The translations under genes were made by a program, and so were the position numbers. A DNA stretch of 58,052 bases from a virus (lineage: Duplodnaviria; Caudoviricetes), in IMG/VR virus record IMGVR_UViG_3300009503_000396, positions 1-58,052 of that record; one strand, 5' to 3'. Of this stretch, positions 1 through 14,446 are shown piece after piece (position 1 is the stretch's first letter; the number at the start of each line of letters is the position of its first letter). The notes beneath the pieces are model-generated. The model was given only the letters and a program-made list of their open reading frames with translations, did not search any database and was not told where the DNA came from.

Positions 1-2
1 AA

Positions 3-71
3 GCAGACACATTCAAGAAGGCAACAGAAATACTAGCACCCTTTGTCCTCCAGGAAGAACTGTCCAAGTGA
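3..71 (+). CDS. 3' end of a hypothetical protein (partial)
   Basis: Open frame ADTFKKATEILAPFVLQEELSK ending TGA 69-71. Confidence 0.55.
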   Translation, partial: ADTFKKATEILAPFVLQEELSK

Positions 72-81
72 GGGGAGAGAG

Positions 82-210
82 GTGAGTAAAGTCTACTACT
101 GTCGTGTGTGTATGAAAGTCTCAAAGACAAAGAAATGTGAGACATGTGGAGGAGAATGCGAGGAGTTTACAATCCCGGAAGATATAACTCTTGGTGTCAT
201 TGCTGTCTGA
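82..210 (+). CDS. small zinc-ribbon protein (42 aa)
   Basis: Manual translation MSKVYYCRVCMKVSKTKKCETCGGECEEF...; two CxxC pairs; purine-rich SD upstream. Confidence 0.6.
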   Translation: MSKVYYCRVCMKVSKTKKCETCGGECEEFTIPEDITLGVIAV

Positions 211-231
211 CAGTCAGTACAGAAGAGGACA

Positions 232-393
232 ATGAGAGTACCAAAACTATGCAAAGTCTGGTTTGAAGGCCCTTGTGGCAGAAAGATATGCTGTAGATAC
301 TGTGAGAAGAAAGACTGTGAGGTACGATGCTACAGAGCTAAAAGAAGCAAGTGCAATCTACGTATATCTCTATGGGACATGTTGACTGCTTAG
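232..393 (+). CDS. Cys-rich CCxxC-family protein, copy 1
   Basis: Manual translation MRVPKLCKVWFEGPCGRKICCRYCEKKDCEVRC...CNLRISLWDMLTA; aligns with 490 and 675 ORFs. Confidence 0.7.
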   Translation: MRVPKLCKVWFEGPCGRKICCRYCEKKDCEVRCYRAKRSKCNLRISLWDMLTA

Positions 394-489
394 ACCAATC
401 TGGAGTGCTACTGCCAAAAGAAGGAGGAATACAACACAAAGAATATAAGTCAGGAGTGGAAAAGACATAGTAAGAACGCAAGGTGCTAA

Positions 490-678
490 ATGATGGAGAA
501 CGTACCGGGAGATGCTGCATCGTCTAGGACAGTAAAGAGATATTGTGCAGTATGGTTTCTGACTGAATGTGGTAAGAGACTTTGTTGTCACTTCTGTGAG
601 AACAAGAAACTATGTGGCAAGTGTAATGCTAAATACGTCACTTGTCCTCAACGTGTATATGTCTGGGATGTGATGTGA
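490..678 (+). CDS. Cys-rich CCxxC-family protein, copy 2
   Basis: KRYCAVWF..CGKRLCCHFC..C..C..CPQRVYVWDV. Confidence 0.7.
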   Translation: MMENVPGDAASSRTVKRYCAVWFLTECGKRLCCHFCENKKLCGKCNAKYVTCPQRVYVWDVM

Positions 679-848
679 CACAACAAGGAAGAAATGTCCT
701 CAAGAGGTATTGTAGAAAATGGCCGTACTGTCCTATTGGTAAGCATGTGTGTTGTTACTTCTGCAAAGAGGAATGTGACGTTAGATGCCTATCAGTTGAA
801 GACTGGAGAACATGTGAACAACGTTGCAAGTTATGGAATGTATTGTGA
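675..848 (+). CDS. Cys-rich CCxxC-family protein, copy 3
   Basis: GTG 675 overlaps the previous TGA; KRYCRKW..GKHVCCYFC..CDVRC..CEQRCKLWNV. Confidence 0.7.
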   Translation: MTQQGRNVLKRYCRKWPYCPIGKHVCCYFCKEECDVRCLSVEDWRTCEQRCKLWNVL

Positions 849-971
849 AAGACAAGTTGGAAAGAAGAGGGAAGGAAAGAAAATGGTAACTATATCTACT
901 TACTATCTATGTCCTCTGTCTGTCAAAAGGAGGAAGTGTGTGAACACTAGAAGACACTTGGAAGTGTCCAT

Positions 972-1220
972 GTGGAGATGATAGCACAAATACCAGCAAT
1001 AATTGTTCTCCTTCTGTTTGACACAATAGCTTTCTTGTTTGTTGGTTGGAGTATGATAGGGAAATTAGTAAAGGTGATAAGAAGGAAACTCAACAAGTCC
1101 ACAGAATCCAAAACAAAACAAGTAGTAGTTGCATGTCCAGTTCCATTGAGGAGAACAGAATATATGTATGGAGAGTGTGATGCAGAACTGGATGCTCAAG
1201 ACGAAGAGGAAGGTGTATGA
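972..1220 (+). CDS. small single-pass membrane protein
   Basis: N-terminal hydrophobic stretch, basic segment, acidic tail. Confidence 0.6.
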   Translation: MEMIAQIPAIIVLLLFDTIAFLFVGWSMIGKLVKVIRRKLNKSTESKTKQVVVACPVPLRRTEYMYGECDAELDAQDEEEGV

Positions 1221-1402
1221 CAAAGAGACTTAAAGAACAAGAGTGGTTAGTCTATCGCATGCAATACAACCATTGTTGTATCTGTTGTAAACATCTTCTT
1301 AAGAACACATGCCCAAAAGGTATAGATTATCCTAGAGTAATGGGATTCAGTAAACGTTATCCTCTCTGGAGAATAGGAAGTGCATGTGAATGCTGGTGTT
1401 AA
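1217..1402 (+). CDS. Cys-rich hypothetical protein
   Basis: CCICC..C..CECWC; ATGA overlap with upstream gene. Confidence 0.55.
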   Translation: MTKRLKEQEWLVYRMQYNHCCICCKHLLKNTCPKGIDYPRVMGFSKRYPLWRIGSACECWC

Positions 1403-1668
1403 ACCTAAGAGATGACAGAGTGATGGATAAGATAGAGTCTCTAAATGACATCTATCTAAAACTCTTTGGTCAGAAGAGAATTTGTGTCGCTTGTGGAGAG
1501 ACTTTCTATTGTATTGGTAGATGTGAAAAAGACTTTGGTGATAGAACACAACAGATTGACTTGTGCATGTGTAAGAGATGTTTAGTAGGTCAACTGAGAA
1601 AGGACAAGAGAGCATACATCAACAAACGTCTCAGGTGTTATACGTTCTTTAGTGAGGATAGAAAATGA
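1390..1668 (+). CDS. Cys-rich hypothetical protein
   Basis: CVACGETFYCIGRC...CMCKRC. Confidence 0.55.
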   Translation: MLVLNLRDDRVMDKIESLNDIYLKLFGQKRICVACGETFYCIGRCEKDFGDRTQQIDLCMCKRCLVGQLRKDKRAYINKRLRCYTFFSEDRK

Positions 1669-2270
1669 AAGAGTTTCATTTCAGTAAAGGGAACAGGAAG
1701 ATAACAAACAACGTTCTTATCTGGAATCTTCCAGCAATCAGCACTTGCCCTGGAAGTTCAACTGAGTGTAGAAAGTTCTGTTATGCCCTAAAGGCAGAAC
1801 GGTATCCCTCTTGCTTAGCCTCACGGAAGAAGAATCTGGAATTCTCTAAAAGAGAAGACTTTGTAGAACGTATAGTCGAATACTTAAAGAAACGGAAAGA
1901 GACAACAATTAGAGTTCATGAATCAGGGGACTTCTATTGTCCTTCATACTTCTACAAATGGTGTGAAATAGCAAGACAACTACCAGAGAAGACTTTCTAT
2001 GCTTATACCAAGTCATACTTCTTCAACAACTTCTGGGACAATGTACCAAGTAACTTCAAATTAATCCAGAGTGTAGAATCTAGGTTTCCAAACAAAGTTG
2101 ACTGGTCAAGGAGTACAGCTAGAGTGATACTTAGTCCAACAGAGAGGAAGCCAAATGAGTTCATCTGTCCAGAACAATTGGCAAAGAAGAAAGGAAGAAA
2201 GTTAAAGTGCATGGAAGAATGTAAACTTTGTCTGAGGGACAATATCCATGTTTGTTTCCTCAAGCACTAA
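1665..2270 (+). CDS. GP88-family (phage gene product 88) Fe-S/radical-SAM-like protein
   Basis: Motifs KGNxK, WNLPA..TCPG...C...CYA, IRVHESGDF, FYAYTKS and C-terminal CP..C..C..C. Confidence 0.8.
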   Translation: MKEFHFSKGNRKITNNVLIWNLPAISTCPGSSTECRKFCYALKAERYPSCLASRKKNLEFSKREDFVERIVEYLKKRKETTIRVHESGDFYCPSYFYKWCEIARQLPEKTFYAYTKSYFFNNFWDNVPSNFKLIQSVESRFPNKVDWSRSTARVILSPTERKPNEFICPEQLAKKKGRKLKCMEECKLCLRDNIHVCFLKH

Positions 2271-2286
2271 GACAAGAGGCAAGAAC

Positions 2287-2553
2287 ATGGAGACATACCT
2301 CTGGAGAAAGTTAGTCCCTAAAAAGGATATCTGTACAATCAAATGCCTTACTTGTTGTTGGGAATGTTCTTACTTGGACAAATGTGTATTTGAATCAGGA
2401 GGAATATGTTGTCTCTCACCATTCCATAAAGTGTGTCTTCATGCAGTAAAAGTATATCTACAAACATTCTATGGTTTGACAGAGCTAGAAGCATTCAGAT
2501 TAGCTTTAGAAGCCAAAGAAGGAAGGAGGATACATTATGACAAGAAGATGTGA
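2287..2553 (+). CDS. Cys-rich CCxxC-family protein (divergent)
   Basis: CTIKCLTCCWEC..C..CC..C. Confidence 0.6.
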   Translation: METYLWRKLVPKKDICTIKCLTCCWECSYLDKCVFESGGICCLSPFHKVCLHAVKVYLQTFYGLTELEAFRLALEAKEGRRIHYDKKM

Positions 2554-2660
2554 CTGTTGTGGTAGGATAATACCACTAGGAAAACCACACGTAGCTCACT
2601 TTAGCTGTGGTGTTTCCAGATGACATTAAGGAAGAGAAATAAGAAGACAGATGAGGAAAT

Positions 2661-2864
2661 GTGGAGAGAGATCTTGGCCTCTGGCAAGCATGTGATATCC
2701 TTACTTGTCCAATGAACAGAGGAGGATGGTGTAAGAATCCTACGTACTACAAATACTTCCCAGTAGGAGGAGTAGTTATGATTTGTACTGTTACAATGGA
2801 AGGAATAGTAAAGAGAGTGGAGAAAGAAGAAAATGGTTGGATAGAGGAGTTGGAGTTGAAATGA
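2661..2864 (+). CDS. hypothetical protein
   Basis: ORF track; four Cys; start uncertain. Confidence 0.45.
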   Translation: MERDLGLWQACDILTCPMNRGGWCKNPTYYKYFPVGGVVMICTVTMEGIVKRVEKEENGWIEELELK

Positions 2865-3061
2865 CAACATACTGTTTCTGGAAAGTACTCACACGTATCT
2901 TCAGTTCACCAACTTACAAGTGTATCAAGTGTTGTGCCATATGCAAAAAGAAGTGCAAGGACTGTCATTGGACTAAAGGATGCTACTTACGTCTTTCAGA
3001 GACAGAATATCTCATTCTTAGAGTTAGTTTGTCCACTTTGACAGTCCTGCGGATGCATTAG
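2861..3061 (+). CDS. Cys-rich CCxxC-family protein
   Basis: MTTYC..KCIKCCAICKKKCKDCHWTKGCYLRLS; ATGA overlap. Confidence 0.65.
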   Translation: MTTYCFWKVLTRIFSSPTYKCIKCCAICKKKCKDCHWTKGCYLRLSETEYLILRVSLSTLTVLRMH

Positions 3062-3087
3062 AATATTTACAGTCTCTGAGGAGAAGA

Positions 3088-3327
3088 ATGGAACAAAAGT
3101 ATTGTCTCATAAAAGTAAGTGACCCTTCACACTACGTCATGAAAGATGGAAAGCCTTGCATTAGGTGTTGTTATGGTTGTCCAGACATTGACAGTTGCCA
3201 TTGGAAGGGTTTGTGTCACTTGAGAGAAACATGTCTCTTACGTATTTCAGCGAGAGAAATGGTTTTGTGTCGTATTGATCCAGCATACAAAGAAATCATA
3301 ATCGCAAGGAGAGTAAAACTTCTCTAG
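3088..3327 (+). CDS. Cys-rich CCxxC-family protein
   Basis: KYC..PCIRCCYGC..SCHWKGLC..CLLRIS; paralogue of 2861 ORF. Confidence 0.65.
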   Translation: MEQKYCLIKVSDPSHYVMKDGKPCIRCCYGCPDIDSCHWKGLCHLRETCLLRISAREMVLCRIDPAYKEIIIARRVKLL

Positions 3328-3337
3328 GTGTGAGAAG

Positions 3338-3718
3338 ATGAAGTACTCTCTTGTCTTTTCTCACATAGGAACACGTTCATTCTTAGTGAATAGGAGAACA
3401 ATCATTGAAAGGTATGCTGTTTGGCACATGTTTGTTGATGGAGAATTCTATGCCAATATACACTTAACATCTTCTTCTTATCTCCATGAATTGTTGAAAG
3501 AACTCTCTGACAAGGATGGAGCAATATCTTTTGACGAGGATGAGTGGAAACTAATCAAGTATTGTTTAGACCATACAAGGAAGTGGAAGATATTTGCAGA
3601 AGCAAGAGACACACTTAGAAAACAAGGAAGAGAAGCCATGTTCAATTACCTCAAAGAGAAATTAGCTGTTCATATACTTTCAGACAACTTGAAGGGAGTT
3701 AGATGGCAAAGAAACTAA
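3338..3718 (+). CDS. hypothetical protein
   Basis: 126-aa ORF in co-directional array. Confidence 0.6.
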   Translation: MKYSLVFSHIGTRSFLVNRRTIIERYAVWHMFVDGEFYANIHLTSSSYLHELLKELSDKDGAISFDEDEWKLIKYCLDHTRKWKIFAEARDTLRKQGREAMFNYLKEKLAVHILSDNLKGVRWQRN

Positions 3719-4008
3719 GAGACATACTCGACAAAGTTATAGACTCCATCCTTCTCATTGGCTATCCAATCTACCGTCTCAAGTGGAAGATAGTCTCTTG
3801 GAGAGAAGAACGTAAGCTATACAAGACAGAACAATGGAAGTTGATGTTGTATGGATATAAGACATGCATGTTTTATAGAGATTGGGGAGAGGGAAATGAA
3901 GTCTGCACAAGGAAGCTTGATAGTAAATTAAATTGTTTCTTTGGTAATGTACATTGTGACAAGTATAGATGTAAAGTTTATATCAATGACCCAATCAAAT
4001 GTTGGTAG
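3703..4008 (+). CDS. hypothetical protein, Cys-containing C-terminus
   Basis: ORF with SD GGGAG upstream. Confidence 0.55.
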   Translation: MAKKLRDILDKVIDSILLIGYPIYRLKWKIVSWREERKLYKTEQWKLMLYGYKTCMFYRDWGEGNEVCTRKLDSKLNCFFGNVHCDKYRCKVYINDPIKCW

Positions 4009-4017
4009 GTGAAATAC

Positions 4018-4233
4018 ATGCCTTCACATGGTTCATTGAGCAAGTCAGGGAAAGTACGAACACAACAACCTAAGCGATGGAGCGAACTTGGTCGAAAGAA
4101 TAGAAAAGGAGTACTAATGCATCACTACCACAAACACCTCTCTCCAAGACTTAGCACACGAAGAAGGTATGAGAAATATTTTGTCTTAAAGAGAAGGAAG
4201 GGACAAGTTTACAAATTTATGATACACAAGTGA
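4018..4233 (+). CDS. rps30e: 30S ribosomal protein S30e (eS30) homologue with an internal insertion
   Basis: MPSHGSLSKSGKVRTQQPK...PRLSTRRRYEK matches the archaeal eS30 signature MPxHGSLTKAGKVRxQTPK...PRxxNRxxYxKR; SD GGTGA 4008-4012 five nt before ATG 4018. Confidence 0.88.
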   Translation: MPSHGSLSKSGKVRTQQPKRWSELGRKNRKGVLMHHYHKHLSPRLSTRRRYEKYFVLKRRKGQVYKFMIHK

Positions 4234-4235
4234 AA

Positions 4236-4497
4236 GATGGAGGGTAAGTCTGAAGAACTTTTGTTGTCTGTGCAGACTTTTTACTTTCCCTTCATCCACG
4301 AGTGGGAGTTGACAAGTCTGTTGATGATTTTTCAGTCTATTAGACTAATCTACTTGTCAGCTCCCAAATTGGCCGATGAGAGTCTTAGAATAGGTTTCAA
4401 GTCTGTTAAGAGATTCAACTCTCATCGGCCAACTCCAAAGAAGTCGAGATGTCTTTCGAGTATCTTCAGTCTTTAAGGAAGTAGTTACCTCTTTCCT
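4236..4497 (+). ncRNA. candidate structured RNA: consecutive long hairpins downstream of eS30
   Basis: Stems 4236-4244/4288-4296, 4304-4317/4352-4365 and 4369-4383/4418-4432 (perfect 15 bp); mismatches are G-U on the + strand; further weak hairpin with UUCG loop at about 4446-4466. Confidence 0.6.
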
Positions 4498-4520
4498 CTC
4501 CTGCAAATTGATTCTTTAAC

Positions 4521-4534
4521 AGAAAATTTATAAG
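4521..4534 (+). promoter_or_regulatory. archaeal BRE/TATA promoter
   Basis: AGAAAA-TTTATAAG about 35 nt upstream of ATG 4570. Confidence 0.6.
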
Positions 4535-4569
4535 TCAGTAAAGTAACGTGTAGAGTAGGATGGAAGAGG

Positions 4570-4839
4570 ATGGAACCAATTCGTAGACACAAAGTCCGCT
4601 GTCTTATTTGCAAGAAAGAAGGTGTAGTAGAAATTCAAGGAGGAAAGATACTTACGAGTGGTTGGTACTATTATGGAAGGATGGACATGAATGCTTGTCA
4701 TACAAACAAGTATGTGTACCTCTTTACACCAGAAAACAAGAAGAACCCTTGGAGACGTATAAAGAACCCAGACTATGATCCTAATGTCAAGAGAAAATAT
4801 GTTGAGATATGGGAATGTCCAAAATGTGCAGAAGAATAA
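4570..4839 (+). CDS. zinc-ribbon-like hypothetical protein
   Basis: CLIC at N-terminus and WECPKC at C-terminus. Confidence 0.65.
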   Translation: MEPIRRHKVRCLICKKEGVVEIQGGKILTSGWYYYGRMDMNACHTNKYVYLFTPENKKNPWRRIKNPDYDPNVKRKYVEIWECPKCAEE

Positions 4840-4850
4840 AGCATGAAGAA

Positions 4851-4937
4851 CTCCGAGAGAAGGGTAAGCACGTGAGTCTAACATTTTTCTTCAGTCTCCG
4901 AGGTATGTTTACTCTCGTGCTTGCCCTCTAAACGGAG
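4851..4937 (+). other. intergenic bulge-helix-bulge (BHB) RNA motif closing a 70-nt hairpin (candidate EndA-processed intron/circular RNA)
   Basis: CUCCG-AGAG-[AAG]-GGUAAGCACG pairs with CGUGCUUGCC-CUCU-[AAA]-CGGAG: a 4-bp helix with 3-nt bulges on opposite strands. Confidence 0.6.
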
Positions 4938-4943
4938 GTTAAT

Positions 4944-5240
4944 GTGTTGAAAATTACAACTTTACGACCTCTTTGGAAACAGATAACCTTTGAAGAAAAT
5001 GAACCAGGGATCTGTTGGAATACATCAATGGCAGAAGAACGAATATTCTATGTGAGAGCTGGAGACAAGATGTGTGCTGTAGGAATGATACGGAGAGGAC
5101 GCAACTGGAATGACTATGGTGCAGAAGGAATGCACTGTGCAGATTGTCCATACTTCCTTCACAAGAAAGTAATGGGAAGAGCAGAGAAAGAACTACTGCA
5201 TGAATTGGAGGAGACTTTGAAGAGAAGAATAAAGGTGTAG
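4944..5240 (+). CDS. hypothetical protein
   Basis: SD GGAGG 4934-4938; C..C..CADCPY. Confidence 0.6.
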   Translation: MLKITTLRPLWKQITFEENEPGICWNTSMAEERIFYVRAGDKMCAVGMIRRGRNWNDYGAEGMHCADCPYFLHKKVMGRAEKELLHELEETLKRRIKV

Positions 5241-5244
5241 ACGT

Positions 5245-5586
5245 ATGAGAGTAAAACTACGTATTAGCTTCCCCTATGGAGAAGTATTGTGGTGGAACAA
5301 AGATCACTATGAACGTATCACATCCGACAATATCCTTAGGTGTTTGTTGGACTTCACAGAAGTAAGAGCATTCAATTGTGTCTTCAACTATAAAGACCAT
5401 ACATTCACAGTTACAGCAGACTTGTCTCCTCTGACAGAAAAACAGTTAATCGATAGCTTCAGAGAAGCATTTGCTAAACTATTCAAGAAGAACCAAGTAA
5501 TGGTTACTGTATTAGAAAGACACTTGAGCAAGAAGGAGACAGAGCAAGTAGTCACTGCTTTAATGATGGAGAAGTTGGAGGATTAG
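5245..5586 (+). CDS. hypothetical protein
   Basis: 113-aa ORF in array. Confidence 0.6.
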   Translation: MRVKLRISFPYGEVLWWNKDHYERITSDNILRCLLDFTEVRAFNCVFNYKDHTFTVTADLSPLTEKQLIDSFREAFAKLFKKNQVMVTVLERHLSKKETEQVVTALMMEKLED

Positions 5587-5588
5587 CT

Positions 5589-5978
5589 ATGGAAGCGAAA
5601 TACTTACTTCGTTCTGCACCAAATGGTAGATTCTACTTGTTGGAGAAGAGCAATGGAGAATATGTCTCAATAGGTATGTTGTTGACTGAATATCCCATAG
5701 ACAAAGAACTCACACTTGCATTGGCTAACAAGGTGAAGAAGTTCCAAGTACTGCTCCGAAATGAAGGTGATATCATTTATATCTTGCCAGACAAGTTTGG
5801 AGACTTGTTGAAGATACACATCAAAGTCTATGGAAGGTTGCAGTCATTTGGAGAGAAGTTAAGATACATTGAGAGACTTCAGTTCTTTACACTCTTAGAA
5901 GAGGAGAACTATGAAGAACTCATACGAAGACTTGAACTCTTATATCTTGGAACAGTTGTGGAGGGAGAACACAAGTGA
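5589..5978 (+). CDS. hypothetical protein
   Basis: 129-aa ORF in array. Confidence 0.6.
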   Translation: MEAKYLLRSAPNGRFYLLEKSNGEYVSIGMLLTEYPIDKELTLALANKVKKFQVLLRNEGDIIYILPDKFGDLLKIHIKVYGRLQSFGEKLRYIERLQFFTLLEEENYEELIRRLELLYLGTVVEGEHK

Positions 5979-6298
5979 AGGTGTCAAATAGTACACGACA
6001 ATGGTATTTAACGAACATCATGGACGTATTGGAGAAGCATAGACAAGCAAATGTGAGAGTCATAAGTATGGAACTCACTAAGCTTGGTGGTAAGAAGTAT
6101 CCAGCAAATGAAGGACGGATAACTAATTATCTCAGACAACTGAGGAAGATGGGATATGTGGATTACTGTCGTAAGAATACAAAGCATAGAATAAGACTTA
6201 AACTACCCTCACATGAAGGAGTGTGGATGTTCAAAAAGAAATGGAAGGAAGGAGGTGAGTTGGATGGGGAGACAAGGACTCTCAGACAAAGCACGTAA
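5975..6298 (+). CDS. winged helix-turn-helix protein, paralogue 1
   Basis: WY..IMDVL...YP...GRITNYLRQLRKMGYV...W. Confidence 0.65.
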   Translation: MKVSNSTRQWYLTNIMDVLEKHRQANVRVISMELTKLGGKKYPANEGRITNYLRQLRKMGYVDYCRKNTKHRIRLKLPSHEGVWMFKKKWKEGGELDGETRTLRQST

Positions 6299-6524
6299 GT
6301 GGTATACAGAACAAATCCTAAATGTTTTGAGAGGACAAGAACATGGTGTGACTACTGCAGAGATTATCTTCTCTCTCAAGAAGCTATCCCAACAACGTTA
6401 TCCATTGCAGAAAGGAAGAATAACAAGTCTTCTTAAAGAAATGAGGAACTATGGTCTGATAAGAGGAGAACGTCCAGAAGGAAGTCATGTAGTATTGTGG
6501 GAGTTGAATGGTAAACCAAAGTGA
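6264..6524 (+). CDS. winged helix-turn-helix protein, paralogue 2
   Basis: SD GGAGGTGA 6251-6258; WY..ILNVL...YP...GRITSLLKEMRNYGLI...W. Confidence 0.7.
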   Translation: MGRQGLSDKARKWYTEQILNVLRGQEHGVTTAEIIFSLKKLSQQRYPLQKGRITSLLKEMRNYGLIRGERPEGSHVVLWELNGKPK

Positions 6525-6711
6525 ACCTAGAAAGAGAAATGGACAGAGCAGGCTAAAGAAACGTACTCTCAAACTCATCTCTTCTACATTACAGAATACT
6601 GGATGGTTGACGTTGATGTACTTTCTTTGGATAGCATACAATCCAATTGGAATTGCTCTGTCTATCATATGCCTCTTTTCCAGTGACTATATCTCGTTGC
6701 TAGGTGATTAG
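6508..6711 (+). CDS. small two-helix membrane protein
   Basis: Two hydrophobic segments. Confidence 0.5.
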   Translation: MVNQSEPRKRNGQSRLKKRTLKLISSTLQNTGWLTLMYFLWIAYNPIGIALSIICLFSSDYISLLGD

Positions 6712-7204
6712 AACGTTGTCTCGTGTAGGGAGAAATTGTTGGAAGTCAAGGGAACCTTTCTGTTTCTCACTTGAGGAAGAAGTGACCAATGTGAAAGACT
6801 TTGCTACTCTTTTGTATCACTATCTGAAGACAATACGACTACCATTTCATTATGAACGTATAGAAGTATACTTCGAAGGAGAGTATGTTGACAATGACTT
6901 CCGAAGACACTGGGAGACAGGCATTATCTTGATCTACTTGAAGAAGCCTTGGAGAGTCAAATTGGACATACGCTATGACAAGTTTACTAGTCCATATGTC
7001 ATAAAAATAGAGTTCAGTGAAGGAAGTAAGTGTCTAAAAGTATGGAATGAGGAGAGAGACATGGACTATTATTGGAGAATGCCTCTTGAACAAATAGAGA
7101 AATTCTACAACATAATGAAGAAGTTTGCTGCTAAAGACTTCTTGGAGATGGCACTCTATGAATGTTCTAAAAGAAGAAACAGAGTGGAAGAAGATACTGT
7201 TTAG
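6704..7204 (+). CDS. hypothetical protein
   Basis: 166-aa ORF. Confidence 0.6.
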   Translation: MIRTLSRVGRNCWKSREPFCFSLEEEVTNVKDFATLLYHYLKTIRLPFHYERIEVYFEGEYVDNDFRRHWETGIILIYLKKPWRVKLDIRYDKFTSPYVIKIEFSEGSKCLKVWNEERDMDYYWRMPLEQIEKFYNIMKKFAAKDFLEMALYECSKRRNRVEEDTV

Positions 7205-7349
7205 TCCCGAAGAATGCAAATACTATTACCATGGTCTGTGTGTTCTTAAGCTAATAGAAGATAATGTTCCCAATCTTGCTCATTATGTCTGTAGGAGAGT
7301 GTGTGAGAGATTTGCACATAAGAGTGAAGTTAGTGAACAAAATACGTAG
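7158..7349 (+). CDS. small Cys4 protein, paralogue 1
   Basis: WKKILFSPEECKYY..GLCVLKL...CRRVCERF. Confidence 0.6.
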   Translation: MNVLKEETEWKKILFSPEECKYYYHGLCVLKLIEDNVPNLAHYVCRRVCERFAHKSEVSEQNT

Positions 7350-7527
7350 AGAAGAGGAGAAGTTGTGGAACAAGATACTATACAACCCAGACAAGTGTAG
7401 ATACTACATCGAAGGCAAGTGCTTTCTTAAGCTAAGAGGTTATTGGACTATTCATCGTCTAAGAGACTTCGACTGCAAAGGCTTGTGTGAGATGTTTCAA
7501 CATGTCAGGGAAGAAAGAACAACCTAG
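7333..7527 (+). CDS. small Cys4 protein, paralogue 2
   Basis: WNKILYNPDKCRYY..GKCFLKL...CKGLCEMF. Confidence 0.6.
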   Translation: MNKIRREEEKLWNKILYNPDKCRYYIEGKCFLKLRGYWTIHRLRDFDCKGLCEMFQHVREERTT

Positions 7528-7768
7528 ATGTTATGCTGCCATAATTCTGGGAAAGAAACTCTCTTCATCATGGGCACAATGCAAGAAAAGAGTCAATGGT
7601 CTTTGTTGTAAGGACTGTTCAGAAGTAACAATGTGTCCTACTCCTTGTTCACAAATACTTCTCTACTTTAAGATAGATGATGAGTCTTTCAACTTCGAAG
7701 GATTTAAATGTAGGTTTTATTGTACACCTACTCAAGCAGTAATGAGGAGAATAGCTGGTGATACTTGA
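7502..7768 (+). CDS. Cys-rich CCxxC-family protein (divergent)
   Basis: RCY...C...LCCKDC...CPTPC...CRFYC. Confidence 0.55.
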   Translation: MSGKKEQPRCYAAIILGKKLSSSWAQCKKRVNGLCCKDCSEVTMCPTPCSQILLYFKIDDESFNFEGFKCRFYCTPTQAVMRRIAGDT

Positions 7769-8088
7769 TGGGTGTGTTTGACTCCTTCTGGATACGGATG
7801 AAATGTCCAATATGTCAATATGAAGACAACTTTGAATTTCAAACGAAAGAGTTTGTCCAATGCTTACTTCACTTCTACGTAGGAGATAATGTAAACCAGA
7901 AGATTACCTCCACTCGTCTAGGACAAATGTACATCAAAGACGGAGAAATACTTGGGGCTATTTCGTACTGCAAGAATTGCAAGTCTAGACTTAGAGGTAC
8001 TATTGTGATTAAGAAGGGAAAGTTTGTAAGAGTTAAGAATGTCAAACGTTGGGATGATCCAGAAGACATAGGAGTGAATATCGTATGA
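7768..8088 (+). CDS. conserved phage-type zinc-ribbon hypothetical protein
   Basis: MGVFD..CPIC..FQTK..C..VGD..CKNC, a pattern recalled from uncharacterised phage proteins. Confidence 0.6.
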   Translation: MGVFDSFWIRMKCPICQYEDNFEFQTKEFVQCLLHFYVGDNVNQKITSTRLGQMYIKDGEILGAISYCKNCKSRLRGTIVIKKGKFVRVKNVKRWDDPEDIGVNIV

Positions 8089-8366
8089 AGAAGTGTGACA
8101 CTTGCAAGAAAGACATCACTGACAACAGTTTCATTCAAGTAACCTTCTATGGTAACTGCCAAAGACTTATGTTGTATTGGAGAAAGCCTATTCAGTTGGA
8201 GTTCTGTAGTTTCAATTGCTTCCAAGAATACTTCAACATGTTGACAAAAGAACAAGCACTGGAAGAATTGGCGGAGAGGAGGCATTGGGAGTCGAGATAC
8301 CCTGTTCCAGCAAGTGCAATGAGGCAAGGTGAGGAGGAGACGGATAAGAAGGAAGGGAGTGAGTAA
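8085..8366 (+). CDS. TRASH/MYM-like zinc-finger protein
   Basis: CDTC...FCSFNC. Confidence 0.6.
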   Translation: MKKCDTCKKDITDNSFIQVTFYGNCQRLMLYWRKPIQLEFCSFNCFQEYFNMLTKEQALEELAERRHWESRYPVPASAMRQGEEETDKKEGSE

Positions 8367-8696
8367 GTGTCAGCAGAATTCACAATGACACTAGGTAAAC
8401 AAGGTACTTGTCAGATATGTGGGAAAGAAGTGTATTCAAAAATGTTCACGTGTGACTTATGTGGCAAAAAGACCTGCACATTACACATGAAGGCACTAGT
8501 TAGTATCGTGACAGAAGTTGGCTATGTTACTACTTCGAGTACTCTTGCACCCATTGTTTATTCTACTCCTGCCAGCAAAATAGAAATGTTTATCTGTTCC
8601 GAATGTGCTGATGCACTTAAACTGTCTCTAAGGGTATTGGCAGGAAGGAATAAGGATGAAGATAAAGATCACGAGAATAAAGATAACAGCAAATGA
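8367..8696 (+). CDS. zinc-finger hypothetical protein
   Basis: CQICG..CDLCG..C..H..CSEC. Confidence 0.6.
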   Translation: MSAEFTMTLGKQGTCQICGKEVYSKMFTCDLCGKKTCTLHMKALVSIVTEVGYVTTSSTLAPIVYSTPASKIEMFICSECADALKLSLRVLAGRNKDEDKDHENKDNSK

Positions 8697-8988
8697 ACAC
8701 TTGCCACCAGAGAAAGCAGTAAATGCTGTGATATCCTTCAAAGCTCAAAAAGGTAAGTTCCACTGTGAAGGAATAGTGAACACAACGATTTACACCTTCT
8801 TGGAGAGAGAAAGTATTATCAGCAGTCTCTATGGATTAATAGTACGTGAAGTCTTGTATCAGTACAAAGCTTGGAAGGATATACAAAGAAAAGAGGCAAC
8901 TCTCACAAGACATATGCCTTGGTTGAAGGACTTGGAGGGTAATGAAATACCACCTGAATATATCTTGGCAGAGGAGTTGGACAGATGA
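8656..8988 (+). CDS. hypothetical protein
   Basis: 110-aa ORF ending ILAEELDR. Confidence 0.6.
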   Translation: MKIKITRIKITANEHLPPEKAVNAVISFKAQKGKFHCEGIVNTTIYTFLERESIISSLYGLIVREVLYQYKAWKDIQRKEATLTRHMPWLKDLEGNEIPPEYILAEELDR

Positions 8989-9287
8989 AGGAGTTGGTTC
9001 CTCTCTCATTTCTCAGAGTAGGAGAAAGTGGTCTCATAGTTTCAGTCACTGGTCATCCAATACTTGTGACCAAGTTAAAGTCTCTTGGTTTTGATGTAGG
9101 AAAGATTGTTCTTGTTGTTGCAACAACTACTGGATACTTTGGTAGTTACATGCTTGTGAAAGTAGAAAGTAGACAAGTGAAACTGAACTATTCAGAAGCT
9201 AATTACATCATTGTTGAGAGAGAAAGAATAGAACCTATACCTACTCCTAATCCAACCTTGCCGGTGTATGCTTTTGGAACAAGATGA
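8985..9287 (+). CDS. feoA: FeoA-domain (SH3-like) protein
   Basis: LSxLxxGExGxIxxV..KLxSLGFxxGxxVxV..G..LVKV..VxLxxxEAxxIxV FeoA pattern. Confidence 0.75.
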   Translation: MKELVPLSFLRVGESGLIVSVTGHPILVTKLKSLGFDVGKIVLVVATTTGYFGSYMLVKVESRQVKLNYSEANYIIVERERIEPIPTPNPTLPVYAFGTR

Positions 9288-9498
9288 AAAGATTTGTGCT
9301 ATATGCGGGAAACCAATCAAACAACGCATACGTTTCGTACTTGTTCTTGAGAAAAGAGAACGTTATAGAACTTACTTCAAACCTACTCCTCTTGGTTTAT
9401 ACTTCCATGAGGGATGTGTGAAGAAGATATCAGTTAATGTAAAGAATCTATGGGATCTCATTCGAGTAATGAACCAATTGACAGGGAGAACCCGTTGA
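9268..9498 (+). CDS. zinc-finger hypothetical protein
   Basis: CAICGKPI...YFHEGC. Confidence 0.6.
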   Translation: MLLEQDEKICAICGKPIKQRIRFVLVLEKRERYRTYFKPTPLGLYFHEGCVKKISVNVKNLWDLIRVMNQLTGRTR

Positions 9499-9532
9499 TC
9501 TAAGTATGAAGGAGAAATGGAGGTGACCAAGT

Positions 9533-9751
9533 GTGAATTACAGGAAGATAATAGCTAAAGAGTTTGTCGTCATTAGTTTCTATGCTGGTTGTTTCTTAAC
9601 TCCTCTGGTACTAAGTGCGATTGCTCTTGACAACTGTCTGCGGTCTGCTCCTCCTTTGGTGAAGGTTGTGACTTCTTTATTGTTAGGTTTTGTCTGGGGT
9701 CTCTGGTTACAGTTAGCTACAAAGATCTTGAACACTGTACTGAAAGAGTAA
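9533..9751 (+). CDS. small membrane protein
   Basis: SD GGAGGTGA; two hydrophobic helices. Confidence 0.6.
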   Translation: MNYRKIIAKEFVVISFYAGCFLTPLVLSAIALDNCLRSAPPLVKVVTSLLLGFVWGLWLQLATKILNTVLKE

Positions 9752-9753
9752 AA

Positions 9754-9761
9754 TATTTAAG
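9754..9761 (+). promoter_or_regulatory. putative TATA box
   Basis: TATTTAAG followed by CAGTAAAG, which also follows the 4527 TATA box. Confidence 0.4.
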
Positions 9762-9782
9762 ACCAGTAAAGAAAGTAGAAGT

Positions 9783-10619
9783 GTGAGACATATGCGAATG
9801 CCGAAGTTAGACTTCAAAAGACTTCTGTTCCTCCTCTTCCTATTCTTAGGATTCTTGGAGGCTGGACTACCGGGACTAGTAGCTGGTTTCTTCTTCTGGG
9901 CAGTGCCAAGTGTTCTCTTGACACTCTCATTGATACCATTTGTTGGTTATTTCATCTATGATGCTTTCAAGACACCTCTATTGGACAACATTAAACATTT
10001 CATACCAGATACAGTACTAACAGAGAAAGTAGCTATGTTCTTTGACCTTCAAGCAATTATCTATTGTATTCTGACATCAGCACTAGTAGTTGCAGCTATT
10101 GTCTTAGTTATCTTCTTCTGGAAGAGGAGACAAAAGAAAAAGGCAGCAGCACTTGAGTTTGTGAGTCTAAAAGAAACAATACTAGCAATGGACTGGAAAG
10201 ACCTTGAAGACTTTGTAAACAAGTTGAAAGACAAGTTGAAAGGTGTAAATCCACACTTGGCTGGCTCAGTTCTCTTTTGGTTGGGTATTGGTGTTTCTTC
10301 TCATGACTTCTACTGGGAAGCAAATGAGTGGCAAGTAAATACCAAGAGACCAACACATGGTGTCTATCTAGGTCTTGGACTTGCAACTACTGGAACTACA
10401 ATCATAGAACCAAGTGTAGTGAAGAATGCATTCTTCTACTTGGGTGAAGCACTGTGTCTGATAGGTTTCTGGACTTTATCACTCTTGCCGAGGGGAGTTT
10501 CAAGGTGGATCTCTCATTTCTTCTGGTGGTCTGGTACTGGTCTAATGATATGGAACTGGTATATACATGTCAAACCAGAACTCATCAATGATACCGAGAA
10601 AGCTAAAGTCTTCACTTAA
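9783..10619 (+). CDS. multi-pass membrane protein
   Basis: Several hydrophobic segments; N-terminal part resembles 13592 ORF (LIPFVGxxIY / IIPIAGxxIY). Confidence 0.7.
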   Translation: MRHMRMPKLDFKRLLFLLFLFLGFLEAGLPGLVAGFFFWAVPSVLLTLSLIPFVGYFIYDAFKTPLLDNIKHFIPDTVLTEKVAMFFDLQAIIYCILTSALVVAAIVLVIFFWKRRQKKKAAALEFVSLKETILAMDWKDLEDFVNKLKDKLKGVNPHLAGSVLFWLGIGVSSHDFYWEANEWQVNTKRPTHGVYLGLGLATTGTTIIEPSVVKNAFFYLGEALCLIGFWTLSLLPRGVSRWISHFFWWSGTGLMIWNWYIHVKPELINDTEKAKVFT

Positions 10620-10620
10620 A

Positions 10621-10638
10621 CACCCTTCTTTTTCTTTG
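10621..10638 (+). terminator. pyrimidine/oligo-T tract terminator
   Basis: CACCCTTCTTTTTCTTTG directly after a stop codon. Confidence 0.45.
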
Positions 10639-10702
10639 TGAGGAGTGGTAAAATGAATAAAGTATTACTTGGGTACATGTGGTATTTGGATAGTGATGAT
10701 AG

Positions 10703-11182
10703 ATGAAAGAGAAGCCATCATTCTTGGTTAGGAGAGCAGCGAAAGAGCACACATGCCTCTACTGTGGCAAGACAATACCGAAAGGTACAAAGTATTATGT
10801 AAAAACAGAGACACCAAAGGAATTGCGTAAGGCATTGGAACAGCGGACTGGTTGGTCTGTTTACACAATCAAAGCACGTACTCGTTTCTGGTATATTGAC
10901 AAAGTCAATTGGCCATTCTGTAGTCTAGAGTGTTTAGCAATGTATTGCAATACAGAACGAGACAAGTTGCCTCAAGAAGTGCAAGAACGTATTCAGCAAA
11001 AGATAAAGTCTATTGTTGATAATGTGAGTGAGATTGTGAGTGTGATTGTAGCACTTGGAGGGAGTAAACCCTACGAACGGGATAAGTTTATAAGTCTCTT
11101 ACAAGTAAAAGGAGGTGACGATTGGTATGGAAGAAGCGTATGGATTGCCCGTGAAGGAAGTACCTCCAGGCAAGGTGTTTGA
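10703..11182 (+). CDS. TRASH-like zinc-finger protein
   Basis: RRAAKEHTCLYCGKTIPKG...PFCSLEC. Confidence 0.65.
   Translation: MKEKPSFLVRRAAKEHTCLYCGKTIPKGTKYYVKTETPKELRKALEQRTGWSVYTIKARTRFWYIDKVNWPFCSLECLAMYCNTERDKLPQEVQERIQQKIKSIVDNVSEIVSVIVALGGSKPYERDKFISLLQVKGGDDWYGRSVWIAREGSTSRQGV
11087..11094 (+). promoter_or_regulatory. putative TATA box
   Basis: TTTATAAG followed by SD GGAGGTGA 11111-11118. Confidence 0.5.
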
Positions 11183-11333
11183 TATCAGATACTATCCAGC
11201 ACGAGAATGGGTTCTCATCTACTTGGACAGAGAGACTTATGACTCAATTAGAAAAGCTTGTGAAGAACACAAGATTGATGTCAAGAAGGCTATCTATGGC
11301 AGTCTTATCCACATTAGAGAAGCACTCAAGTAG
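11127..11333 (+). CDS. small protein, possible ribbon-helix-helix
   Basis: VLIYLDRETYDSIRKACEEHKIDVKKAI; strong SD. Confidence 0.5.
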   Translation: MEEAYGLPVKEVPPGKVFDIRYYPAREWVLIYLDRETYDSIRKACEEHKIDVKKAIYGSLIHIREALK

Positions 11334-11372
11334 CCTGGAGGTTATAGTCTTTAAAAGAAAAGAGGTGAGTGT

Positions 11373-12353
11373 ATGGAATTGAAAATAGATCCCAAGTTAG
11401 AGAGCATAATTCCACCACTACGTGAAGATGAACTGAAAGCACTGGAGACATCCTTGAAAGAGAAAGGACAGATAATGCCAATACTAGCAATGCCAGATGG
11501 AACAATCATAGATGGACATCACAGATACAAACTCTTGAAGAAACTAGGTCTAGAGCCTAGAGTACAAGTCATGGAAAATGTGAAGACAATAGATGAGGCA
11601 TTGAAACTAGCCTTTGAAATCAATGTACAGAGACGACAACTAAGTCTACCCATGAAGTTAAAGTGGGCTTATGAAGTCGAGAAACAAATATTAGAAGCAG
11701 AAGCTAGACATAGACAAGGAAGACATGGAGAAATTCGTGACCAACTTGGTCACGAATTCAGTCGTACTCGAACTAAAATAGCTGAAAAATTAGGGGTAGG
11801 TGAGGGGACAGTATGGCGTGCATTCAAGATCTTGCAGGATGCTCCTGAAGAGTTCAAGAACCTCTGGCTTTCTGAACAAGTAACTACAAATGCTGCAGCA
11901 ACAGCAACAGAAGCACTTGAGTCTATACCAGAAGAATACAAGGATAGGAAAGAAGCACTTATTGAGATGGTAGTTGAAGACCCAGACAGAATAACAGAGA
12001 TCAAAAAGATAGTTGGTAACACTAATGCTGTTATAGCAATGATAGAAGGAGAAACAGATGAAGTCAGAGCAAAATTAGAGGAACGATACAAGCCACTGTA
12101 CTTTACACCAGACTTAGATCCAAGAGAAGTCTTATGGTATGCTGAAGAGATCTCACAATCTTCACATAAGCTATCAAAAGGCATCAAGTTAGCCGAAGAA
12201 ATTGGTGAAACATTCGAGGAAGCAGACGCATGGTTCGCTCACTATGGTGGAAGATGTATCAGGGAGGTCAAAGCTTGGGAGGGCGAGTGGGACAAGTTCC
12301 AGGAACAACTCGAAAAGAAAGGAAAGTTCTCAGTTGGGGAGAAAACAGAGTAA
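11373..12353 (+). CDS. ParB/Srx-like N-terminal domain protein with HTH
   Basis: L..SL...G...PI......IIDGHHRY; NVQRRQL; IAEKLGVGEGTVWR. Confidence 0.85.
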   Translation: MELKIDPKLESIIPPLREDELKALETSLKEKGQIMPILAMPDGTIIDGHHRYKLLKKLGLEPRVQVMENVKTIDEALKLAFEINVQRRQLSLPMKLKWAYEVEKQILEAEARHRQGRHGEIRDQLGHEFSRTRTKIAEKLGVGEGTVWRAFKILQDAPEEFKNLWLSEQVTTNAAATATEALESIPEEYKDRKEALIEMVVEDPDRITEIKKIVGNTNAVIAMIEGETDEVRAKLEERYKPLYFTPDLDPREVLWYAEEISQSSHKLSKGIKLAEEIGETFEEADAWFAHYGGRCIREVKAWEGEWDKFQEQLEKKGKFSVGEKTE

Positions 12354-13027
12354 CCATCCTCTCAACTCCTGAAGAAATTGAAGAATTCATTGACTTATAT
12401 CCAGAGGCTAAAGACTACAATTGTCCAGATTGTGAAGAAGGAGATGTAGTGGTAGACACAATTCGCAATTTTGTCTATCACTTCTCAGTATATAAATGTC
12501 CATACTGTGAAAAAAGATTTCCTACAATAGAAGCATTCAAAGAACATGTAAAAATAGTACAAGAGGAGTACTTACTTGCTGACGAAGAAGCTAAGATCCC
12601 AGAACATCCCTTTGTAAAACCAGATGAGTATCAAGAAGTACTAATGGAACACACGTTCTCCAAAGCACTAGTCTATTATGCTGTTGTATGCCCAAGAGAA
12701 ATAATACCTCTACCATCTTCTGTAGAGTATTCTGAAGAACACCCAAAAGTTCCAACAGCAGAAGAACGACAACGACATGATGAACTAATGGCTAAGTGGA
12801 GGGAAGAGATGATGAAGACTTATCACACTAGACAACCCAAGATTGACTTACTTCCTAATGGAGATTTACATGATCCTGGTGGCAACCGTTGGTGGTATTG
12901 GACAGTGCAAGTTTGGGTTGATGAACGCAATTGTTGGAGGCCACTGCCTAAAAAGTTCAGAGAAGATCCACCAGGCAAGGTGAGAGTTCTCTTTCTATTG
13001 GCTATTATTCCTGAGGAAGAAGAATGA
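12287..13027 (+). CDS. zinc-finger-containing hypothetical protein
   Basis: CPDC and YKCPYCEKRF.....EH; GTG 12287 preceded by GGAGG. Confidence 0.6.
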   Translation: MGQVPGTTRKERKVLSWGENRVTILSTPEEIEEFIDLYPEAKDYNCPDCEEGDVVVDTIRNFVYHFSVYKCPYCEKRFPTIEAFKEHVKIVQEEYLLADEEAKIPEHPFVKPDEYQEVLMEHTFSKALVYYAVVCPREIIPLPSSVEYSEEHPKVPTAEERQRHDELMAKWREEMMKTYHTRQPKIDLLPNGDLHDPGGNRWWYWTVQVWVDERNCWRPLPKKFREDPPGKVRVLFLLAIIPEEEE

Positions 13028-13254
13028 TTGTCCTCTACACCCTCCCTAACTGTCCAAAATGTCAAGTAGTCAAACTCTTCTTGAGACGAAAAGGAATAGA
13101 CTTTGAAGAAAGAGATGCCAGAGACTATTCAACACTTCTACTAACTCAGCACATGCAAGAAGCACCAGTCATAGAGATCAACGGTCAGTTCTACACTTTC
13201 GAGACTTTGACAGAACTAGAGGACATCTTACGACAAGAAGGGTATAGTATATAA
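13024..13254 (+). CDS. glutaredoxin-like NrdH-redoxin
   Basis: LYTLPNCPKC..K..L...GIDFEE...APVIEING. Confidence 0.85.
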   Translation: MIVLYTLPNCPKCQVVKLFLRRKGIDFEERDARDYSTLLLTQHMQEAPVIEINGQFYTFETLTELEDILRQEGYSI

Positions 13255-13258
13255 AACA

Positions 13259-13588
13259 GTGACAAGAAAGAGAGTGGACGGTGACATAGTGTTCAAGTGG
13301 TTCAAGAAGAGAGAACAGAAGAAGAAACGACAAAGATACTTTGAGGAAGGGATAGAACAGAGTAAGTACCCGGACTTTCTTAAGCAAATAGATGTTGCTA
13401 TTATAGACTTGTTGAGAGATTATCCAGATGATGACACTCTACTCAGCAAACTTGGAGAAGAAGCATCAAGATGGTTTACTGATATGCCTCACTTGAACCT
13501 TACGTCGTTCAAAGCAGGTGTAGTATATGGAATGTTTCTTCTCTTGAGACATAGAAAGCAACGCAAACGAGAAAGTTATGTAGTATAG
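13259..13588 (+). CDS. hypothetical protein
   Basis: 109-aa ORF. Confidence 0.6.
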   Translation: MTRKRVDGDIVFKWFKKREQKKKRQRYFEEGIEQSKYPDFLKQIDVAIIDLLRDYPDDDTLLSKLGEEASRWFTDMPHLNLTSFKAGVVYGMFLLLRHRKQRKRESYVV

Positions 13589-13591
13589 GAG

Positions 13592-13954
13592 GTGAAAAGA
13601 GTGAGTGAGAAAAAGCCTTCAGTAAGACCGGATAAGAGATTATGGTGGTTCGACACTCTCTTCTTGGCTACGGTTCTTATTCTTGGATACTTCGAAACAC
13701 AAAGTCTCAATTTCCTAATGGCTGTACCACTGTACTTCTTTGGCTTCGTTGCATCGTTCCTTGGCATCATACCAATAGCTGGTCCTTTGATATACTTCTT
13801 TGGCATGAGAGCATTGTTCAATGCCTTGCTCAGTACTTTCAACCTCTCGATGCCAGTGACATCAGCAATAATTTTCTGGTACTTCTTCGGATTCACAGTG
13901 TTTTATAACTTCATTATTCTTCTGATCCTAATACTAGCAAAGACAGGACAATGA
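13592..13954 (+). CDS. multi-pass membrane protein (paralogue of 9783 N-terminus)
   Basis: Three to four hydrophobic helices. Confidence 0.65.
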   Translation: MKRVSEKKPSVRPDKRLWWFDTLFLATVLILGYFETQSLNFLMAVPLYFFGFVASFLGIIPIAGPLIYFFGMRALFNALLSTFNLSMPVTSAIIFWYFFGFTVFYNFIILLILILAKTGQ

Positions 13955-13956
13955 AG

Positions 13957-13964: not shown

Positions 13965-13990
13965 ACACTCTCTTTTTCTCTTCCTTAGAG

Positions 13991-14442: not shown

Positions 14443-14446
14443 AAGT

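Follow-up and report, generated by a model that had tools for sequence, protein, structure and literature searches.

Virus-encoded ribosomal proteins and the position of eS30

Ribosomal proteins encoded by viruses are known mainly from bacteriophages, and the literature, as far as its text was available, cites L21e and bL19 for archaeal viruses. Mizuno et al. reportedly found some of the phage proteins to be incorporated into E. coli ribosomes. According to the accessible sections of PMC10541130, bL19 was preceded in archaeal viruses by a single detected ribosomal protein, L21e, and 'S30' is absent from the text of that paper. The sole eS30 entry in the available portion of the main text of PMC6375957 is a murine sarcoma retrovirus, and excerpts on this retroviral S30 sequence describe it as antisense and untranslated. 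In the accessible part of a 2026 archaeal virus database paper, the term 'ribosomal protein' is absent. No report of eS30 in archaeal viruses was found in the literature searched, which fits, within the portions of the sources available, an earlier sequence-only reading of this DNA that had called an archaeal-virus eS30 unknown.

The protein eS30 is one of three small-subunit proteins common to TACK archaea, Asgard archaea and eukaryotes. The available sections of PMC11698992 describe it as confined to these three groups and as positioned at the mRNA entry channel, where it contacts h16. The same sections report that Pro2 of S. solfataricus eS30 packs on h44 beside the A site and that in eukaryotes a histidine of the eS30 tail stabilises the codon-anticodon pair.

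An eS30 gene among viral ORFs

The DNA analysed here (the window, 58,052 nucleotides) is a linear IMG/VR virus record of hot-spring origin with a CheckV completeness of 33%. A frame of 71 amino acids followed by a TGA stop at 4018..4233 (+) was confirmed, as far as sequence comparison goes, to encode a divergent archaeal-type eS30 homologue in a virus. A Shine-Dalgarno-like AGGTGA at 4007..4012 (+) ends 5 nt upstream of ATG 4018 and overlaps the TAG stop (4006-4008) of the preceding ORF 3703-4008, and the earlier claim that this ORF has its own Shine-Dalgarno sequence was borne out. Within the window, a 4-mer of GGAGGTGA was found at -4..-18 of 39 of the 86 plus-strand ORFs, compared with 15.5% of random positions. 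The program had called the ORF as 4009..4233 (+), from an in-frame GTG at 4009. This GTG is unlikely to be the true start; translation from ATG 4018 gives a protein beginning with MPSHGSLSK, and every homologue opens with MP[ST]HGSL.

The surrounding genes are small viral ORFs, and the eS30 ORF gave the only match to Ribosomal_S30 in the record. No other ribosomal protein surfaced in the Pfam and PHROG scans run on the window ORFs, and Rfam over 3700-4700 returned one sub-threshold match and nothing more. The sequence-only reading had described the gene as isolated among viral ORFs and overlooked its membership in a sizeable virus-associated subfamily with a conserved insert.

Relationship to cellular eS30

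Profile searches related the viral protein to eS30 at modest scores. NCBIfam NF006817 (S30e) matched with an E-value of 1.1e-8 and 34.8 bits, with a curated cut-off of 75. Pfam PF04758 (Ribosomal_S30), proposed earlier as the profile for a check, did match the protein with an E-value of 0.001, and its score of 19.6 bits stayed under the cut-off of 27. Both curated cut-offs (gathering and equivalog) were thus missed, a point overlooked in the sequence-only reading. The archaeal S30e chain 9fhl_e of the S. solfataricus 30S subunit matched with an E-value of 2.6e-5. In this alignment, viral residues 1-19 pair with chain residues 1-19 without a gap and viral residues 38-61 pair with 26-48, and therefore 18 viral residues stand against 6 cellular ones between the paired parts. 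When the viral family was compared with 28 cellular eS30 sequences by hhalign, the probability was 99.6% and the E-value 9.4e-25, with a single 14-column gap. The Atlas clusters nearest to the viral protein were all Ribosomal_S30. Together, NF006817, PF04758, 9fhl_e and hhalign upheld the earlier identification as the archaeal ribosomal protein eS30.

Because the cut-offs were missed and the insert splits the alignment, the viral protein was filed as a divergent homologue or subfamily and not as an equivalog. The HMM scores below the cut-offs are probably also the reason why the gene was left unannotated. Only 10 of the 48 insert-bearing family members described below attain a Pfam E-value of <=1e-3, and routine annotation misses the family because most of its members fail the standard HMM thresholds. 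A profile made from the family (alignment A2) could mark such viruses, invisible to routine annotation, in future surveys.

A fold search with the AlphaFold2 model of the protein against the PDB gave no significant match, the best E-value being 1.2. Six of its nine rows were eukaryotic eS30 chains, with scores at chance level.

Parts of the protein and the insert

The N-terminal tail (residues 1-19, MPSHGSLSKSGKVRTQQPK, 4018..4074, +) has Pro2 and His4, as in the signature of archaeal eS30, and is the most conserved region of the viral family. Its motif HGSL.KAGKVR is conserved and the tail almost invariant, Pro2 and His4 of this A-site tail are strictly conserved, and G5, L7, K9, A10 and G11 are each at least 90% conserved in the 48 viral-family sequences. 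Towards the other end, residues 43-56 (PRLSTRRRYEKYFV, 4144..4185, +) are the equivalent of the PRxxNRxxYEKR helix of cellular eS30. The basic motif P-R-x-x-N-R-x-x-Y-x-K of this C-terminal helix is present in the window protein, and across the viral family P43 never varies and R48 is kept in at least 90% of the sequences. The C-terminal tail (LKRRKGQVYKFMIHK, 4186..4230, +) has a GQ motif as in Bathyarchaeia-type eS30 (…LQRKxGQNW).

Between these parts lies the insert of the virus family (residues 24-37, LGRKNRKGVLMHHY, 4087..4128, +), which is basic and rich in histidine and was delimited by hhalign and linker lengths. Residues 24-37 face the 14-column gap of the cellular profile, corresponding to a net gain of 13 residues. 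The segment from PK to PR has 23 amino acids in the viral protein versus 9 in chain 9fhl_e, and the linker from R14 to P43 has 28 residues in the window protein versus 15-16 in all 30 of 30 cellular rows. The sequence-only reading had counted a 23-residue PK–PR segment, an insertion of about 13 residues and the letters MHHYHKH within it, all of which were found again.

In an AlphaFold2 model built from the family alignment (mean pLDDT 76.5), the C-terminal helix is predicted at residues 43-56 with a pLDDT of up to 95. Around the insert, a short helix at 21-24 and a beta-bridge between 27 and 33 are predicted, with a mean pLDDT of 81-86 over residues 21-40.

Size and relationships of the insert-bearing family

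A word-based protein search with the single viral protein recovered the protein itself alone. A profile made from the window protein and its one IMG/VR relative was searched against 1.84 billion representatives and yielded 53 matches at E<=1e-3, of which 48 (the two query proteins included) have the insert at the same place and the remaining five are short cellular-type sequences. Insert-bearing eS30 comprises 48 clusters at 50% identity. The 48-member profile, searched in turn against a collection of 5.8 billion clusters, matched 176 proteins at E<=1e-8. Ranks 1 to about 64 of these are insert-bearing and those below are cellular S30e of 53-62 aa, the source-named proteins in the lower ranks being all S30e from Bathyarchaeota/Bathyarchaeia, save two MAGs labelled bacteria. 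Linker lengths taken from hmmalign were long in 66 and short in 54 of the 120 matches listed of the 176; these counts are approximate, as at least five rows that are insert-bearing by eye (P0015, P0010, P0022, P0028 and P0039) have the insert misplaced by hmmalign.

Across 53 viral-type rows, linker length ranges from 19 to 38 residues, with a median of 28. The inserted segment follows a common pattern, made up of an aromatic-R/K-E element, a stretch of basic residues and, right before the invariant proline, H-x-[KRQ]-[KRPA]-H. The last of these was found in 35 of the 53 viral-type rows versus none of 30 cellular rows.

A phylogeny had been proposed as a check, and a tree was calculated from 55 columns, all outside the insert. 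Of the 53 insert-bearing rows, it united 50 on a branch that has an SH-aLRT of 91 and is not starred, and it left three (P0020, P0030 and P0046) outside. The simplest reading would be a single origin of the insert form and its later spread among viruses.

Short linkers in the cellular eS30 sampled

In the genomes sampled, cellular eS30 was found to be of the short type. The family profile matched 373 of 401 evenly drawn Thermoproteota genomes. All 150 matches listed span 126-180 nt (235 further matches lie beyond those listed), and the best 30 are 50-62 aa long and all of the short type. A scan of a genome collection gave 14 eS30 loci, each of 58-62 aa. In metagenomes, at least 599 stretches matched, of which at least 539 were confirmed as eS30 relatives; linkers were read in 80 of these loci and had 15-17 residues in 78 and 27-28 in two. 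In the cells sampled, eS30 is without the insert.

Viral carriers of the insert form

The window is contained in full in two hot-spring metagenome runs, from which it may derive. Of its 93 called ORFs, 86 are on the plus strand. Among their products are a protein with a phage GP88 domain, a MoxR-type AAA protein accompanied by a VWA protein, ClpP and phosphatidylserine decarboxylase, and a complete, eukaryote-type topoisomerase IB. A Mre11-like exonuclease, a class I ribonucleotide reductase (RNR), a RadA/Rad51-like ATPase, an ERCC4 nuclease and a DNA polymerase of family B (PolB) are also present, together with sugar-nucleotide and glycosyltransferase genes. Intein/LAGLIDADG segments interrupt five window genes. 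No tRNA was found in the window or in five related genomes (G001-G005), and one tRNA-Pro was found in the metagenome contig L075.

No head, portal or terminase gene was found among the 10 largest ORFs of the window or among 55 further ORFs compared with PHROGs, and because these 58 kb are without a structural gene, the viral nature of the window rests on IMG/VR and on its relatives. Such a stretch might also be a cellular contig or a mis-assembly, with the eS30 of an unsampled archaeal lineage that has a longer linker. RNR, TopoIB, RadA, XPF, ClpP and glycosyltransferases are found in cells too, and the direct cellular sample was the phylum Thermoproteota, with Asgard archaea, DPANN and Euryarchaeota outside it. 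The record itself was classified as viral by IMG/VR, and the orientation of nearly all ORFs on one strand, the phage GP88 domain and the lack of tRNA genes and of a second eS30-family match in the window speak against a cellular contig, as a single contig of run X1 that covers the entire window with no differences speaks against a mis-assembly. Database sources point in the same direction. The 25 insert-bearing clusters at 90% identity that were inspected have 1-4 members each from metagenome sources only, and none of the 25 has an NCBI or UniRef record versus two of five cellular-type control clusters; two insert-bearing clusters outside those 25 (P0199 and P0047) have an NCBI source, nameless, and would fit a cellular origin.

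Relatives of the window also speak against a cellular origin. The IMG/VR genome G005 has homologues for 25 window ORFs at 36-67% identity, 24 of which are colinear in the two, from 28.7 to 54.1 kb. It carries its own insert-type eS30 and a tail module, in which a tail-fibre/virion protein was recognised at E 1.9e-12, a minor tail protein at E 1.1e-8 and a tape-measure protein by a weak match. The PolB proteins of the window and G005 share 48-51% identity, and among 50,697 deposited phage and archaeal-virus records the window PolB is nearest to that of haloarchaeal tailed viruses, at about 25% identity. Because of this PolB kinship and the colinearity with a tail-gene-bearing genome, the window was assigned to a large archaeal tailed virus, of which it comprises the genes for replication and metabolism. 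The earlier description of the carrier as a virus is in line with this.

A survey of IMG/VR had also been suggested. A scan with the family pattern matched 20 stretches, nine of which were confirmed as eS30 relatives. Six of the nine are insert-bearing, two further ones encode eS30 of about 57-60 aa, in which the linker measures 16 and 20 residues, and one is of eukaryotic type and lies on a giant-virus MAG. (DUF5832 and DUF7197 are giant-virus families.) The survey thus found recurrence on six insert-bearing contigs, including two complete genomes. One of these (G003, 59.4 kb) is rated 100% complete and has direct terminal repeats; its major head protein was recognised at E 4e-22 and its portal protein at E 2.8e-19, and it also encodes head maturation proteases and tail proteins. 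The other (G004, 79.3 kb) is likewise complete with direct terminal repeats and has a large terminase (E 7.7e-15). Insert-bearing copies on two terminal-repeat genomes with capsid, portal or terminase genes are difficult to reconcile with a cellular source, which we regard as very improbable. In addition, the 67.5-kb metagenome contig L075 has an insert-bearing eS30 near homologues of the MoxR/VWA proteins of the window (29-42% identity). Family members also lie on long contigs of 86 kb, 99 kb, 144 kb and 172 kb. Among the 50,697 INPHARED phage and archaeal-virus records, zero eS30 matches were obtained at E<=1.

Possible hosts

The presence of eS30 suggests that the host belongs to the TACK or Asgard archaea. 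Among cellular eS30 sequences with a name, those of Bathyarchaeota are the nearest, and they have the C-terminal GQ motif in common with the viral proteins. The nearest named TopoIB proteins come from Nitrososphaeria MAGs (50-51% identity), and one from a MAG labelled Archaeoglobaceae has 61% identity. A spacer-type search of window positions 1-20000 against 401 Bathyarchaeia genomes returned one 32-nt match (91%, E 8.4e-4). This match was considered as a host clue and read as chance; the locus is without a repeat array.

Selection and gene neighbourhood

The eS30 gene is found in viruses whose PolB identity is only 28-51%. Between two of the eS30 loci (L019 and L021), 54 of 72 residues and just 148 of 216 bases are identical; dN is 0.21 and dS is saturated, so that a dN/dS ratio is not given. 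Contigs about 90-95% identical to the window from three other hot-spring runs (three studies) cover the eS30 gene, and positions 4242-4509 directly downstream of it are missing or replaced in them. The gene thereby appears to be kept under selection in the viruses and not to be a recent passenger.

The neighbours of the gene differ: it lies beside ClpP in G005 and beside RNR in G001, whereas small ORFs surround it in the window. A gene neighbourhood that varies among viruses would suit a protein that has left the ribosome and acquired a new function as a nucleic-acid binder. Such a protein might chaperone RNA, condense or package DNA, or regulate, and the insert, rich in His and Lys, would be its new binding surface. 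The protein is very basic (the family linker has K 22%, R 11% and H 8%), and its scores beneath the eS30 family cut-offs would be compatible with such a change. However, the part that is conserved best is the N-terminal tail, which in cellular eS30 makes specific contacts deep in the 30S subunit that a generic binder is not expected to keep, and the motif of the C-terminal helix is retained too. An existence off the ribosome is therefore decidedly unlikely.

Proposed role in the host ribosome

From the sequence data, we infer incorporation of the viral eS30 into the 30S subunit and any effect on translation. The swap into host ribosomes suggested in the sequence-only reading gains indirect support because a viral family that has diverged widely still conserves the ribosome-contacting motifs of both the N-terminal tail and the C-terminal helix. 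The recurrence of insert-bearing eS30 in many archaeal virus genomes suggests that a modified protein is placed at the mRNA entrance of the ribosome. It is proposed, with a probability of roughly 0.6, that the viral eS30 occupies the eS30 site of the host 30S subunit, bringing a basic element that contains His close to h16 and to the mRNA as it enters. A broader interpretation, according to which a widespread lineage of archaeal tailed viruses rebuilds the mRNA entry channel and the A-site neighbourhood of its TACK hosts by means of an altered eS30 with an insert of about 13 residues, is tentative and has somewhat less than an even chance of being correct.

The following course of events may be envisaged. 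An ancestor of this group of archaeal tailed viruses would have captured the gene for eS30 from a host of TACK type; the cellular sequences that come closest are Bathyarchaeia-like. The captured eS30 might then have acquired the basic, His-containing insert of about 13 residues between N-terminal tail and C-terminal helix, and purifying selection would have acted since then in many diverged viral lineages. During infection, the viral protein would be produced from its own cistron led by the Shine-Dalgarno sequence and take the eS30 site of the host 30S subunit at the mRNA entry channel, beside h16. The conserved N-terminal tail could still reach h44 and the A site, and on the shoulder the insert would contribute a further basic, structured element. 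The outcome might be ribosomes tuned to the virus, which could, for instance, load or unwind mRNA differently, decode differently or resist a host factor that acts at the entry channel.

Where rRNA is packed as tightly as at this site, an insert of 13 residues might just as well stand in the way of normal binding. The viral eS30 might also act as an inhibitor or decoy that binds the eS30 site or the pre-30S particle, where the insert blocks the entry of mRNA or factors and host translation or assembly is shut off. The binding motifs would be identical to those needed for incorporation, and the insert is located in the region that faces the mRNA entry channel and h16 according to the accessible sections of PMC11698992. 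The position of the gene amid small, early-looking ORFs might likewise suit a protein that acts on the host. Yet the virus depends on host ribosomes for its ~90+ ORFs and no encoded alternative was seen, and the strict conservation of Pro2 and His4 in the N-terminal tail exceeds what mere blocking requires. A shut-off of the host by the viral eS30 is for these reasons unlikely, and occupation of the eS30 site in working ribosomes is preferred.

If incorporation is true, archaeal ribosomes specialised by a virus would have a candidate example in the viral eS30. A conserved virus-specific variant of eS30 would also be a natural perturbation experiment on the position at the entry channel and the A site.

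Comparison with known systems

The viral protein resembles cellular archaeal eS30, as represented by chain 9fhl_e, in the gapless first 19 residues, in the PR..NR..YEK helix and in the order of these parts. It differs in a linker of 28 residues as opposed to 15-16, in scores below the family cut-offs and in being encoded by viral genomes. The viral insert moreover has a conserved motif of its own (aromatic-R-E … H-x-K-K-H).

With the bacteriophage ribosomal proteins bS21, bL12 and bL9 (PMC6375957, available portion) it has in common that a small, surface-exposed protein is encoded by a stand-alone gene in variable context. The phage cases are bacterial, whereas the protein described here is specific to eukaryotes and archaea, belongs to an archaeal virus and carries a virus-specific insert. 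Compared with the L21e of haloarchaeal tailed viruses and the bL19 of a Kunpengvirus of Bathyarchaeia, as given in the accessible sections of PMC10541130, viral eS30 is a different protein at a different subunit site.

The retroviral S30 sequence and eL40 are, as far as the available text on them goes, further examples of viruses that carry gene sequence for a small ribosomal protein of eukaryote type. Of these, eL40 is a large-subunit protein found in viruses of eukaryotes. In contrast to the retroviral S30, the eS30 gene described here is a sense ORF led by a Shine-Dalgarno sequence and conserved in archaeal viruses.

Repeats and small open reading frames around the viral eS30 gene

Directly 3' of the eS30 gene of the window, two inverted repeats were identified, each built from 15-bp arms around a 34-nt spacer (4303-4317/4352-4366 and 4369-4383/4418-4432). 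The stretch that contains them (4234-4500) has an RNA fold z-score of -5.8 and matched no family in Rfam. The arm sequence is found nowhere else within the window, and in kindred strains from other hot-spring runs the stretch from 4234 to 4500 is absent or substituted. This stretch could be a small mobile element; a structured RNA and a pair of terminators are further possibilities. An open reading frame of 79 amino acids (4237-4476) overlaps the stretch and may be spurious.

On both sides, the eS30 gene is flanked by series of small open reading frames of 55-110 amino acids (1-3330 and 7125-9500), with an abundance of CxxC pairs, which are probably zinc-ribbon-like paralogues and to which no family is assigned.

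Other genes of the window

The window, which belongs to an archaeal virus, codes for a complete topoisomerase IB of the eukaryotic type (21080-22645), with the DNA-binding domain at the N-terminus, the core domain, and the C-terminal domain all present. Relatives with 50-66% identity are found in their majority on metagenome contigs; those in Nitrososphaeria metagenome-assembled genomes (MAGs) reach 50-51%, and one at 61% comes from a MAG labelled as Archaeoglobaceae. One relative (P0085) is carried by a contig of 99,058 bases, exactly as long as the one on which an insert-bearing eS30 (P0010) lies. Because of this identical length, both may lie on one and the same contig.

A gene cluster at 15656-19800 comprises four genes: one for a MoxR-type AAA ATPase, one for a VWA protein, and two whose products matched no family. 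Three of these four genes (17253-19800) have homologues with 29-42% identity on a metagenome contig (L075, 390-3667), which also bears another insert-bearing eS30. The gene for the MoxR-type ATPase found no match on this contig.

Intein/LAGLIDADG segments are present in five genes within 58 kb (23282-26110, 30356-32371, 37141-40233, 47764-49938, and 50193-52553), among which are those for the ribonucleotide reductase (RNR) large subunit, an Mre11-like exonuclease, and two group-1 glycosyltransferases. On the colinear IMG/VR contig G005 the homologues are far shorter, for example 2109 nt for RNR versus 3093 nt in the window, and for this reason they fit intein-free alleles.

Further eS30 genes on IMG/VR contigs and in cellular genomes

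Two additional IMG/VR contigs carry an eS30 gene, one of 76.8 kb (L023, 6001-6183) with a linker of 16 residues and one of 136.4 kb (L024, 6001-6171) with a linker of 20 residues. In the tree, both cluster with one eS30 from Geoarchaeota (SH-aLRT 95). The former contig also harbours an anaerobic RNR, the latter a homologue of TFIIB as well as a DNA methylase that contains an intein. Both genes may go back to separate events in which archaeal viruses acquired eS30.

A eukaryote-type eS30 with a 16-residue linker was found on a giant-virus MAG contig (IMGVR_UViG_GVMAG-M-3300025860-20_000001, about 5998-6201). DUF5832 and DUF7197 proteins lie in its vicinity, and a homologue of eIF4E (PF01652, E 2.7e-22) is located about 500 bases upstream. 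In the part of the eL40 paper considered here, no eS30 is named in giant viruses, and the gene may also stem from contamination with host DNA.

The complete chromosome of Bathyarchaeum tardum (Bathyarchaeia) has two separately placed eS30 genes coding for 62 amino acids, both of the short-linker type, and two to three matches to the family profile occur in a few other Thermoproteota genomes as well.
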